Assembly (NCBI GenBank): GCA_963665715.2 | Contig: CAXXPR010000002.1 | Coordinates: 1,670,516 to 1,710,515, forward strand | DNA: 40,000 bases | From: Desulfatiglandales bacterium | GTDB lineage: Bacteria > Desulfobacterota > DSM-4660 > Desulfatiglandales > HGW-15 | Reading direction: 5' to 3' | Shown: in pieces, positions 23,099 to 25,715 of the stretch | How the letters are laid out: every line of letters starts with the position of its first letter | How positions within the stretch are numbered: position 1 is the stretch's first letter | The notes under the pieces: model-generated | Database searches by the model: none | What the model saw: the letters and a program-made list of their open reading frames with translations, nothing else | What the model was told of the DNA's origin: nothing | Made by a program: the position numbers and the translations under genes

Positions 23099-23165
23099 AC
23101 ACAACGCGCTGCATAAGCTGTTTGGCAAGCTTTTCGCCAAATCCGACTTGATGCTGATGTTAGCG
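23099..23165 (-). other. attC (short class, intact)
   Basis: acacaacgcgctgcataagctgtttggcaagcttttcgccaaatccgacttgatgctgatgttagcg, with central palindrome tttggc..gccaaa. The stop of ORF 23160-23525 lies in the GCTAAC core. Confidence 0.7.
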
Positions 23166-23525
23166 TTTCCACCTTGGTAGTTTAAAATACCGCAACATCC
23201 CCATTAATAATTGATGGGGCCAGACTGTTTTATAGTTTTTTATATGTTCTACTACTTCCTCAAAAATTGATTCTGGTACATCGGGTGAGTTTGCCGATAT
23301 CCATAAAAAAGCGAAAGGACTTGTTATAATAAATGGATGTTCCTTGTACAAAAATTCTATTTGAACATCATCTGTCATTGCTGAAGATGCTTTTGATAAA
23401 ACTTTAATCTCTTCAAGTCTTTCAAGATGAGTTAAAATCATTGTTGCGTCCGGCCAATAACCTTGTAGTTCAATGCAATATGGTTCTTCTTTTGTACCAC
23501 CGAGTCTTTTGAATTTTATTGCCAT
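23160..23525 (-). CDS. First cassette ORF, hypothetical (121 aa)
   Basis: ATG at 23525 after GTTAGCGTTGTAGGAAATATG. The track start at 23642 reads through the candidate attI. No family recognised. Confidence 0.55.
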   Translation of the reverse strand: MAIKFKRLGGTKEEPYCIELQGYWPDATMILTHLERLEEIKVLSKASSAMTDDVQIEFLYKEHPFIITSPFAFLWISANSPDVPESIFEEVVEHIKNYKTVWPHQLLMGMLRYFKLPRWKR

Positions 23526-23536
23526 ATTTCCTACAA

Positions 23537-23660
23537 CGCTAACATATAGTAGGTTGCCGAAAAGCCGTGTTATTTCACGGCTAATACGTAATACTAAATT
23601 TTTTATACTGCTTATTAGTCGTCTAAACCGCAAATATGTCATATTAGACGACTTTTTAGT
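23537..23660 (-). other. Candidate attI region
   Basis: A GTTAGC core (reverse complement of 23537-23542) sits at the junction with cassette 1, between the array and intI. Contains inverted repeats agccgtg/cacggct (about 23562-23582) and agtcgtcta/tagacgact (23617-23653). Boundaries are inferred. Confidence 0.4.
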
Positions 23661-23692
23661 TTGCTAATTATTTTATTTTTAGTATCATCGGT

Positions 23693-23710
23693 GTGAACAA
23701 ATGATCACAG
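23693..23710. promoter_or_regulatory. Palindromic candidate operator upstream of intI (TGTGAACAAATGATCACA)
   Basis: TGTGA-N8-TCACA dyad containing GAAC-N4-GATC, one mismatch from the Cheo-type LexA box GAAC-N4-GTTC. Lies 94 nt upstream of the intI ATG. Function is inferred only. Confidence 0.3.
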
Positions 23711-23803
23711 TAAAGATTTGTATTAATTCTTTCTTTTTAGCTTCAATTTGGAATGTTGTCAAATAAATATTACTAAATTAAAATTAAAAGGAGATGTTAA
23801 GCA

Positions 23804-24835
23804 ATGGAAGAATTAACTGATAATAATAAAGGTATAAAAGAAAATAAAAAGAATAATATCGCCAACAATAAGGCTCCCAGATTATTAAACCAGGTCCAGA
23901 ACAGGATTAGAGCTAAGCATTACAGTATTCGTACTGAACAGGCTTATCTTGACTGGATAAAAAGGTTTATCCTTTATCATGGAAAGCGACACCCTGCCGA
24001 TATGGGTGACGTAGAGATCTGTGATTATTTAACACACCTTGCAGTGAATAGAAAAGTGGCTTCCTCCACTCAAAACCAGGCTTTGAGTGCTATTCTTTTT
24101 ATGTATAGAGAAATTATCAAGAAAGACCTGGAAGAATTTGATGATCTTATCAGGGCAAAGCGGCCATCACATTTGCCGGTGGTTTTTACTCCCGAAGAAA
24201 CCAGGAAGATACTTGTTCAACTGGAAGGTACAAACTGGCTGATGGGGCATCTGCTTTATGGTTCCGGCCTGAGAGTAATGGAATGTACCCGGCTTAGAGT
24301 CAAGGATATTGATTTTGAATATAAGCAGATAGTTGTAAGAGACGGTAAAGGTAATGTTGATCGTGTAACCATGCTTCCCAGGATAATTATTGAAAACCTT
24401 AAGACCCACCTGGAAAAAATAAAAATACAGCACAAGAGCGATCTCGATGAAGGGTTTGGGACAGTTTATTTACCCTATGCTCTTGATAAAAAGTATCGCA
24501 ATGCCAATAGAAGCTGGATATGGCAGTATGTATTTCCTGCTGCCAGACGTTCGGTTGACCCCAGATCGGGTGTTGAACAGAGACATCATATTTCTGAAAC
24601 TGTTATCCAGCGGGCTGTGAAAAAGGCTATTCGTAATGCAGGGATTACCAAGGCAGGGTCCTGTCATTCATTAAGGCATAGTTTTGCAACTCATTTACTT
24701 GAAGACGGGTATGATATACGAACAGTTCAGGAGCTGCTTGGACATAAGGACGTAAGAACTACCCAGATATACACTCATGTTCTCAGCAGGGGAGGAAAGG
24801 GCGTAAAAAGTCCCGGAGACAAGCTTTTTGAATAG
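23804..24835 (+). CDS. intI: Integron integrase (tyrosine recombinase IntI)
   Basis: [25 protein letters not shown]-terminus. Catalytic GLRVMEC (R), [10 protein letters not shown] (H-x-x-R), [13 protein letters not shown] (Y). The IntI-specific insertion [38 protein letters not shown] is present. Confidence 0.92.
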
Positions 24836-24846
24836 GAGATATTATT

Positions 24847-25458
24847 TTGGAACTGACAAAAAGACAGAGAGAGGTACTCGAATATATTAACAGCCATCAG
24901 GAGAAAATGGGCATTACACCCACTGTACGTGAAATATGCGATCATTTTGGAGTTAGCGCCCCTGCAGGGATACATCGCATACTCCATGTCCTGATAGATA
25001 AAGGTTATTTGATTGCTGCAAAAGGTAAAAAGAGGGCATGGCGCATACCCGGAGGCTCAATAAAGAAAACAATTCCCATCCTTGGTCAAATTGCCGCAGG
25101 GGCGCCAATAATGGCGGTTGAGAATCGTGATGATGAATTGGCTGTTGACCCATCAACATTTGGGGCGGAATCATGTTTTGCTCTTCGTGTAAAAGGGGAT
25201 TCAATGATTGATGCCCATATCAAAGACGGTGATATTGCGATTATTCAGGAGCAGGCATGTGTGGAAAATGGACAGATTGCTGCGGTAATGATTGAAGATA
25301 TACTTGATGAGGCGACACTTAAAATATTTAACAAGAGTAAAAGCCTTACTAAATTAATCCCGGCCAATAAGGCATATGCCCCGATTGTTTTAAAGGGGGC
25401 TCAACAGGAAAAAATAAATATTCTAGGGAAGTTGATTGGCGTTGTAAGAAAAGTTTAA
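24847..25458 (+). CDS. lexA: LexA-family repressor (S24 autopeptidase)
   Basis: N-terminal wHTH (LTKRQREVLEYI...TVREI), Ala-Gly cleavage site (GQIAAGAP), Ser in VKGDSM and Lys in EATLKIF. TTG start 8 nt after an AGGAG that overlaps the intI stop codon. Confidence 0.88.
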   Translation: MELTKRQREVLEYINSHQEKMGITPTVREICDHFGVSAPAGIHRILHVLIDKGYLIAAKGKKRAWRIPGGSIKKTIPILGQIAAGAPIMAVENRDDELAVDPSTFGAESCFALRVKGDSMIDAHIKDGDIAIIQEQACVENGQIAAVMIEDILDEATLKIFNKSKSLTKLIPANKAYAPIVLKGAQQEKINILGKLIGVVRKV

Positions 25459-25462
25459 CTGG

Positions 25463-25715
25463 CAGACAGAAGTCATTTTAGAAAATAGAAAAGAGGAAAG
25501 CAGAAGTCAGAAGTCAGAAATCAGAGGTCGGAAGTCGGAAAGCAGAGGTCGGAGGTCCGAAGTCAGCGGTCAGCAAAAATAGTAATTAGGAAAGAGAAAC
25601 TAGAAAAGAGGAAAGAGGAAAGCGGAAGTCAGTGGTCAGTGAAAAGCCAGAAGTCGGAGGTCAGAAGCCATAAGGCAGAGGTCTGAGGTCTGAGGTCAGA
25701 AGTCGGAAGTCAGAA
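25463..25715 (+). repeat. Purine-rich degenerate heptamer tandem repeat (RGARGTC)n in two blocks
   Basis: Block 1, 25501-25574: agaagtc agaagtc agaaatc agaggtc ggaagtc ggaaagc agaggtc ggaggtc cgaagtc agcggtc. Block 2, 25621-25715, is similar. Each block is preceded by gaaaa(t)agaaaagaggaaag. Confidence 0.85.

Follow-up and report, generated by a model that had tools for sequence, protein, structure and literature searches.

A chromosomal integron in a Desulfatiglandales genome appears to encode its own SOS repressor

Can an integron carry the repressor that ties its integrase to the SOS response, instead of depending on the one of its host? This question is raised by a locus in a Desulfatiglandales bacterium (NCBI GenBank assembly GCA_963665715.2, contig CAXXPR010000002.1), where the integrase gene intI of a chromosomal integron is directly followed by a lexA gene, here called lexA2. 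The locus lies in a stretch of 40,000 nucleotides (nt), positions 1,670,516 to 1,710,515 of the forward strand of the contig, which was analysed as a whole (the window) and whose first letter is position 1. Control of integron integrase promoters by SOS, through LexA, was reportedly described by Guerin in 2009. For the integrase promoter PintI it is established in class 1 integrons and in the chromosomal integron of Vibrio cholerae (PMC3108266; PMC8946536), and, according to a 2022 review, no host factor other than LexA is conserved across integron families (PMC8946536). Only the beta/gamma-proteobacterial motif CTGT-N8-ACAG has been found at intI, and no other LexA motifs were seen to regulate integrases (Cambray 2011, PMC3108266). 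Also, integrases are believed to become inactivated after transfer because a compatible host LexA is lost (PMC3108266, PMC8946536). We propose, with a probability of about 0.7, that the locus is a self-contained, autoregulated and SOS-inducible intI-lexA operon with an integron-dedicated repressor, and thus that this integron platform encodes its own SOS repressor. Our full-text searches of the literature on integron regulation found no description of an intI-lexA arrangement, and a first-pass annotation of the DNA had known of none.

Both genes are intact. IntI matches the integron integrase model TIGR02249 over its full length (469.2 bits, cut-off 265; positions 1-315 of the 315 in the model), a match that takes in the IntI-specific extra domain; PF00589 (125 bits) and PF13495 are matched as well, and the translation has the tyrosine-recombinase catalytic residues R...HxxR...H...Y, with IYTH among the motifs. 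LexA2 reaches 175.4 bits with the equivalog model TIGR00498 (cut-off 110.95) and is composed of a LexA_DNA_bind domain (PF01726, 54 bits) and a Peptidase_S24 domain (PF00717, 103 bits), its nearest solved structure being the Thermotoga LexA, 3K2Z. It has the motifs IAAGAP (A84-G85 cleavage site), GDSM (S119) and EATLK (K159), and across 33 relatives G85, S119 and K159 are invariant and A84 nearly so. LexA2 thus keeps both the cleavage site Ala84-Gly85 and the catalytic pair Ser119/Lys159. At the junction, the TAG stop of intI (24833-24835) overlaps the AGGAG Shine-Dalgarno (SD) sequence of lexA2, whose TTG start comes after an intergenic gap of 11 nt. Within the window's own subclade, L011, L012, L016 and L018 keep the TAGGAG(G) junction (L, G and C numbers are our handles for loci, genomes and contigs). 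A terminator-like hairpin was looked for in the intI/lexA2 interval and none was found. The first-pass annotation had described a lexA directly after intI, an intI stop overlapping the AGGAG and a TTG start 11 nt on, and had named a terminator between the genes as evidence that would speak against their coupling; coordinates and model scores bear out the first point, the second is exact in the sequence, and the hairpin check gave no sign of the third.

The operator of the Gram-positive LexA (DinR), or Cheo box, is GAAC-N4-GTTC. The first-pass annotation had noted a dyad 94 nt upstream of intI with a near Cheo-type box, GAAC-N4-GATC, inside it. Dyad and distance to the intI ATG hold, and only the start has to be moved, one base to the left, to 23692. 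The exact 18-mer, TGTGAACAAATGATCACA, is unique in the 7.63-Mb genome. We found exactly one homologous box in each of the 30 related intI-lexA loci in which the 5' end of intI is retained and upstream DNA is available, with the consensus TGAACAAATGTTCA (yrTGAACAAATGTTCAyr), so that the near Cheo-type box has a counterpart in 30 of 30 loci, beyond what chance would give. The core GAAC-N4-GTTC varies little or not at all, in contrast to the outer positions (ATGAAC, GGTGAAC, CATGAAC). On a matrix made from these 30 orthologous sites, which themselves score 17-26.7 bits, the window box has 22.7 bits. A promoter-like element directed at intI adjoins the box, or is overlapped by it, in every one of the 30 loci. 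Within the window's subclade the box follows closely on a conserved TTGCTTGATAAAA...TAGTATTAT element homologous to PintI, which directly precedes it in L011, L014-L016, L018, L024, L028, L030, L031 and L035; in a second subclade it overlaps the -10 following TTGACA, and in a third it is placed between TTGACA and TACAAT. The window itself shares with SOS-regulated integrons a LexA box at the integrase promoter, here beginning 4 nt past the candidate -10.

The same box is found at standalone lexA genes of sister clades, at -29/-30 in 11 of 12 and at -91 in L045, a placement that looks like the classic pattern of LexA autoregulation. Since these standalone relatives carry it ahead of lexA, the box can be read as the operator of the LexA2 family. 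No box occurs directly upstream of lexA in any linked locus, so autoregulation there would have to go via the intI promoter, which implies co-transcription of intI and lexA. Comparative support is strong for a LexA2 family that acts on its own promoter through this predicted operator. The features of the locus are collected in Table 1.

Table 1. Coordinates of the intI-lexA2 genes, their predicted control sites and the adjoining integron platform in the window.
Feature	Position	Strand	Basis
attI crossover point, 5'-GTT-3' on the minus strand	23541-23543	-	end of homology with L094
attI region, inverted TTAGACGAC / GTCGTCTAA repeats and GCCGTG...CACGGC hairpin	23544-23660	-	90-95% identical to L094:3050-3170
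Candidate PintI: -35 TTGCTA 23661-23666, 16-nt spacer, -10 TATCAT 23683-23688	23661-23688	+	promoter scan, 9/12
Predicted LexA2 operator, Cheo-type box, TGTGAACAAATGATCACA	23692-23709		matrix score and conservation
Candidate Pc: -35 TTGACA (reverse complement of 23757-23762), 17-nt spacer, -10 TAAAAA (reverse complement of 23734-23739)	23734-23762	-	read from the sequence
intI, integron integrase, intact, 343 amino acids	23804-24835	+	TIGR02249, PF13495, PF00589
AGGAG Shine-Dalgarno of lexA2, overlapping the intI TAG stop, 8-nt spacer to TTG	24834-24838	+	sequence; junction conservation
lexA2, integron-borne LexA paralogue, intact, 203 amino acids, TTG start	24847-25458	+	TIGR00498

The closest relatives of LexA2 (50-87% identical) belong to Desulfosarcina, other Desulfobacterales, Desulfobulbia and unclassified bins. 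On a 17-kb NCBI contig an integrase gene is directly upstream, IntI and LexA being 92% and 82% identical to those of the window and the 11-nt type of junction being shared; the LexA2-type gene of Desulfosarcina ovata is also directly preceded by an integrase gene, and a third contig has cassette-like toxin-antitoxin genes with intI as a C-terminal remnant only. A scan of one genome per species gave 80 loci, and with three context loci added and one truncated lexA dropped, 82 loci, all from other genomes, were classified. A full-length intI lies immediately upstream of lexA on the same strand in 21 of them and intI fragments lie upstream in 20; lexA is standalone in 12, four have no upstream DNA, and the remaining 25 hold more distant LexAs (41-50% identical) and no intI. 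The estimated gaps between intI and lexA are mostly 12-70 nt, with six linked loci at 150-830 nt, and in three loci of one subclade (L048, L050, L059) intI and lexA overlap, with the stop of intI inside the fourth lexA codon. Where intI has decayed by internal deletion, promoter, box and lexA are retained, and the box is still present in 13 of the 20 remnant loci. The intI-lexA arrangement is conserved in more than 40 loci, in dozens of genomes of sulfate reducers, and the module is spread through Desulfobacterales and Desulfobulbales-type genomes as one lineage. It is a minority lineage and not a general feature of integrons: in an evenly drawn sample of the phylum, 143 of 401 genomes had intI and only two others had intI-lexA, one decayed and one frameshifted.

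The phylogenies were built by quick searches. In a maximum likelihood tree of 90 LexAs, all 42 linked or remnant-linked LexAs fall in a single clade (47 rows, SH-aLRT 86). Of the five rows left over, three have no upstream DNA, and in L019 and L096 the upstream region is rearranged. The standalone box-bearing LexAs are sister groups of this clade, and far outside it stand the housekeeping LexAs of Desulfosarcina together with LexA1, a second LexA of the host genome that is described below. The IntI tree compares the 21 linked integrases with 41 unlinked ones of a phylum-wide sample, which includes the same genus, family and order and also IntI-2, another integrase of this genome. Here the 21 linked IntIs form a single clade as well (SH-aLRT 93), with a subclade structure that mirrors the LexA tree. 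In agreement, a Mantel test of IntI against LexA distances gave r=0.54, and none of 5000 permutations was as high. The survey of intI-lexA synteny in relatives that the first-pass annotation had suggested came out in favour of the linkage, which is conserved, monophyletic, co-diverging and, in some lineages, overlapping.

Besides the linked clade, one locus presents a different LexA next to an integrase. In L107 (G153:C231:16252-19127) a truncated intI (residues 25-189) is followed after ~65 nt by a LexA of a different clade. This LexA shares 33% identity with LexA2 and clusters with the housekeeping LexAs of Desulfosarcina, and the locus has no Cheo-type box. L107 may represent a second, independent intI-lexA linkage. 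The standalone genes deserve a comment too. L111, L112 and 10 other loci of group C (e.g. G528:C23:116374) are standalone lexA genes with a perfect GTGAACAAATGTTCAC box at -30 (-91 in L045). In the two genomes scanned, G528 and G482, a good box was found only at the promoter of the standalone lexA itself and none at their own intI. A large Cheo-box regulon and a control of intI by group C LexAs were discarded on this basis, and the standalone sister-clade LexAs seem to have tiny regulons.

How does lexA2 relate to the SOS system of its host? The matrix scan of the whole genome, at a threshold of at least 17 bits, returned two sites only, both beside integron attI regions: the one described above and CGTGAACAATTGTTCATT at C2:155385 (24 bits), in L094. 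The genome also encodes a second lexA (lexA1, C2:3468092-3468682), whose product is 34% identical to LexA2. LexA1 has very many homologues that are 72-91% identical in Desulfobacterota-type metagenome bins, and its named relatives are Desulfobacteraceae, Thermodesulfobacteriota and Desulfatiglandales metagenome-assembled genomes (MAGs). Among 150 other genomes of the same order, LexA was found in 113, with the LexA1 type (34-41% identical to LexA2) as the sole hit, and a LexA2-type gene was found in none. As the LexA1 type is widespread in the order and the LexA2 type is absent from these genomes, LexA1 is best taken as the vertically inherited housekeeping repressor and LexA2 as foreign-looking; the intI-lexA2 module looks horizontally acquired by this genome. 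The promoters of LexA1 orthologues from 20 relatives share the motif TTACAGT-N5-TTACAGT, usually in two copies, which lies ~300 bp upstream of lexA1 in this genome (29.7 and 26.3 bits) and from which we infer the LexA1 operator. Within 500 bp upstream, the LexA2 box alone is present at the window's intI (intI-1) and the LexA1 box alone at lexA1, and neither box is present at recA, at both uvrA genes or at the second integrase gene, intI-2. The best score of a LexA1-type motif within 500 bp upstream of the window's intI is -3.2 bits.

Control of intI by the host LexA was rejected, because the motif drawn from the 20 orthologous promoters is missing near intI-1 and intI-2, and so was a general SOS role of the box, which is absent at recA, both uvrA genes and lexA1 and has two strong sites in the genome. 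The first-pass annotation had suggested a search for the dyad at other SOS-type promoters, and took its absence there as a sign against its proposal. The search at recA, uvrA and lexA1 indeed gave none, but a box absent from other SOS promoters indicates a repressor dedicated to the integron rather than a general SOS regulator, and this model is left standing. Its further suggestion, that the gene could be a second, integron-dedicated LexA paralogue, gains support from the separate housekeeping LexA1. As recA (C1:1083648) and the uvrA genes (C2:3011111 and C2:5245988) carry no boxes, the host SOS regulon may be small or unusual. Unusual SOS regulation has reportedly been seen for Geobacter recA.

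We suggest that the locus works as follows. PintI would drive a bicistronic intI-lexA2 transcript, and LexA2 dimers bound to the box, at the transcription start, would repress the operon including their own gene. RecA filaments formed on single-stranded DNA, upon damage or entry of foreign DNA, would stimulate self-cleavage of LexA2 at Ala84-Gly85 via Ser119/Lys159, and the derepressed operon would make integrase and fresh repressor together. Once the signal ends, new LexA2 would shut the operon off, leaving a short pulse of cassette shuffling. The box, the linkage and the trees lend comparative support to an autoregulated intI-lexA module with a Cheo-type operator, as the first-pass annotation had proposed. 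The LexA2-operator pair appears separate from the host SOS system, cross-talk with LexA1 is not expected, and the element probably does not depend on the host LexA for switching on gene shuffling under stress. We hold more tentatively, at somewhat less than even odds, a wider reading, in which an integron lineage was freed from its last host factor: the orthogonal LexA-operator pair would travel horizontally and give an SOS-inducible integrase in any host with RecA, and it may also gate the cassette promoter Pc and could act in trans on orphan attI/cassette arrays that keep the box.

The integron to which the genes belong is real, since the window's intI adjoins a genuine attI and attC-bounded cassettes. 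Another part of the genome, L094, holds a paralogue of positions 23500-23810 with 84% identity, and because the homology stops exactly after ...CTATATGTT, the attI crossover could be mapped to the position given in Table 1. The first cassette starts at this point and runs leftwards. Its GTTAGCG on the cassette side is the reverse complement of CGCTAAC, the R'' of its own attC (~23099-23165). In the two attC sites examined, R'' is CGCTAAC or ACACAAC and R' is GTTGTGT or GTTGGCA; in the first cassette R' and R'' are complementary to each other, and the next attC has the cores ACACAAC and GTTGGCA. A mechanically called open reading frame (ORF) of 160 amino acids (23160-23642, minus strand) over-extends through attI, and the real ORF of the first cassette most likely starts at the ATG at 23524 (MAIKFKRLGG..., 121 amino acids), just inside the crossover. 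Repeats of the TTAGACGAC type are found ahead of the promoter in related loci too. The minus-strand TTGACA-N17-TAAAAA between box and intI, which points at box, attI and cassettes, may be Pc. It is also present in L094, and a minus-strand TTGACA or TTGACT occurs between box and intI in most long-leader loci; the promoter scan, for its part, gave a plus-strand site here (23756-23784) in its place. If this site is Pc, LexA2 on the box could also impede cassette transcription.

Three further loci touch on this platform. L094 (2925-3170; C2:155310-155560) holds the paralogous Pc, box and attI without intI-lexA, with a PP2C phosphatase gene on that side, and five co-oriented small ORFs follow. Having kept Pc, box and attI ahead of small ORFs, it is an orphan attI with a cassette array, which could still be under LexA2 control in trans. 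In Desulfosarcina sp. (L195:2490-5240; G152:C1:~1750673) a 23.8-bit LexA2-type box lies beside an intI fragment of 24 residues and four small ORFs that share one orientation; this is another decayed integron that kept its operator. The second integrase of the genome, IntI-2 (L004:1423-2936, C2:~4163300-4164800), is 61% identical to that of the window and has no lexA adjoining; it is 390 amino acids long, with a C-terminal extension of ~50 residues and a 4-nt overlap with a downstream ORF of 114 amino acids.

Around the two lexA genes we also found repeats. A purine-rich, degenerate heptamer array (CAGAAGT/CAGAGGT-like) at 25463-25715 of the window occupies the interval from the 3' end of lexA2 to that of dctM, and a terminator-like hairpin was not found 3' of lexA2. 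GC-rich short repeats resembling this array flank a gene of the four-helix-bundle ('23S rRNA IVS protein') family near lexA1. An intact gene of this family lies just downstream of lexA1, and an inverted-repeat-flanked fragment of one lies between the two lexA1 promoter boxes (L001:2094-2450).

Several observations weigh against a single autoregulated operon with a dedicated repressor. In several decayed loci the last 30-80 codons of intI are kept beside lexA, and L022 and L026 are without a detectable box, which could point to a promoter close to lexA, within the 3' end of intI. A plus-strand promoter-like site between box and intI (TTGTCA-17-TAAAAT, 23756-23784, 10/12 in the promoter scan) would, if active, escape LexA2 repression. 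One half-site of the window box is GATC and not GTTC, its sole departure, common to two relatives. In the MAGs G154 and G155 the integron-linked LexA is the sole full LexA found, so it may not be dedicated everywhere, and the LexA and IntI trees, with their supports of 86 and 93, come from quick and not exhaustive searches. The first of these points is what an alternative would predict in which lexA2 has its own promoter, constitutive or separately regulated, in the 3' end of intI, and the box controls intI and/or the cassettes only. The six linked loci with long gaps fit this too, as does a weak promoter-like site, GAGACA-18-TATTAT, that the promoter scan gave at 24816-24845; however, the -10 of this site ends 1 nt before the start codon, leaving no leader. 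Gaps of 11-33 nt, the SD-stop overlap and the gene overlap in three lineages indicate coupling instead, and no linked locus has a box right before lexA, where standalone relatives always have one. A separate promoter for lexA2 is, in our opinion, unlikely. Could the box mainly target Pc? LexA2, ~25-45 nt downstream of the Pc start, would then act as a roadblock that makes cassette expression SOS-inducible, and control of intI would be secondary. The orientation of the candidate Pc towards box, attI and cassettes would suit such a role, and so would the retention of Pc, box and attI in L094 after loss of intI-lexA, as well as the box beside co-oriented small ORFs in the decayed Desulfosarcina integron. 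But roughly half of the linked loci have the box only ~60-70 nt from the intI start, with no room for Pc between them, and there it overlaps the promoter facing intI. As the principal function of the box this seems to us rather improbable, and it is compatible with the proposed operon, not exclusive of it.

Another explanation would place LexA2 in the general SOS circuitry of the host, as a second regulator that is adjacent to the integron by vertical chromosomal synteny and not coupled to it. Sedentary chromosomal integrons can indeed hold one chromosomal position for long, and the two MAGs with the linked LexA as their sole full LexA would agree with a general role. Against it, the downstream flanks differ among loci, with a TRAP transporter in the window, a helicase in L011, radical-SAM/PPK2 in Desulfosarcina ovata and an enoyl-CoA hydratase in L012, and some genomes have two or three LexA2-type copies. 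Together with the absence of this type from the 150 other genomes of the order, these facts led us to reject vertical synteny as the explanation. Also, the box is confined to attI regions, and separate housekeeping LexAs exist in the host as well as in Desulfosarcina genomes with one to three LexA2-type copies. We regard this explanation as improbable. Still less can be said for a dyad that serves a regulator unrelated to LexA2, for example a protein of the CRP/FNR type. The CRP consensus half-sites are TGTGA...TCACA, and the window copy resembles them as TGTGA-N8-TCACA. The spacing is wrong, N8 rather than N6; the conserved part over the 30 loci is GAAC-N4-GTTC, the outer TGTG/CACA being variable; and an identical box is the presumed autoregulatory site of standalone lexA genes. 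The CRP-type reading was rejected, and we give such a regulator hardly any chance.

If the proposed operon is right, what would be new is an integron under SOS control in which both the LexA repressor and its operator are part of the platform, LexA control of PintI being already known. Integron biology holds this control to be central, with LexA always as a host factor. An integron lineage equipped with a LexA and an operator of its own would be a different solution, with a portable stress sensor built into the platform, and its box would be the first candidate LexA motif besides the beta/gamma-proteobacterial one at an integrase promoter. It would also provide a naturally orthogonal LexA-operator pair alongside the host SOS system. 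Furthermore, the frequent decay of intI with box and lexA kept raises the question of the later role of the orphan repressor.

Compared with class 1 and Vibrio integrons, the LexA box likewise adjoins or overlaps PintI between intI and attI, Pc and PintI are face to face, and the integrase is presumably derepressed through RecA-stimulated LexA cleavage. In those integrons LexA is host-encoded, whereas here the repressor gene is on the platform, downstream of intI, and the operator is of the Cheo type, the host's own LexA appearing to use another site. In this sense, the locus departs from integrons of the Guerin/Cambray type, where host LexA acts via the host SOS box, since its box matches the LexA2 family. 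Mobile elements can tie recombination or transfer genes to the host SOS response (activated RecA) through S24 self-cleaving repressors, such as lambda CI and SetR of SXT. Our element likewise carries its own self-cleaving repressor, but those are CI-type proteins with HTH_3, and LexA2 is a bona fide LexA (TIGR00498, LexA_DNA_bind) on an integron. The core of its predicted operator, GAAC-N4-GTTC, is identical to the Cheo/DinR consensus, with the difference that here it occurs in Desulfobacterota integrons, is extended to TGAACAAATGTTCA and seems to serve a very small element-specific regulon. Leptospira interrogans has a horizontally acquired second LexA, LexA2, which binds a palindrome in its own promoter only, distinct from the host SOS box (PMC3789691). 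Both cases share an acquired second LexA with an operator unlike that of the host; the Leptospira gene is in a prophage-like region without linkage to an integron integrase, and a conserved multi-genome module has not been reported for it. In function, the closest parallel comes from Pseudomonas putida and its lexA2-imuA-imuB-imuC (dnaE2) operon, in which a second, co-transcribed LexA mediates the damage induction of its own operon alone (PMC5261740). There, too, two LexA regulons with different operators are found in one cell, but lexA2 is the first gene and the cargo consists of translesion polymerases, whereas in the integron lexA comes last and the site-specific recombinase of a gene-capture element is the cargo.

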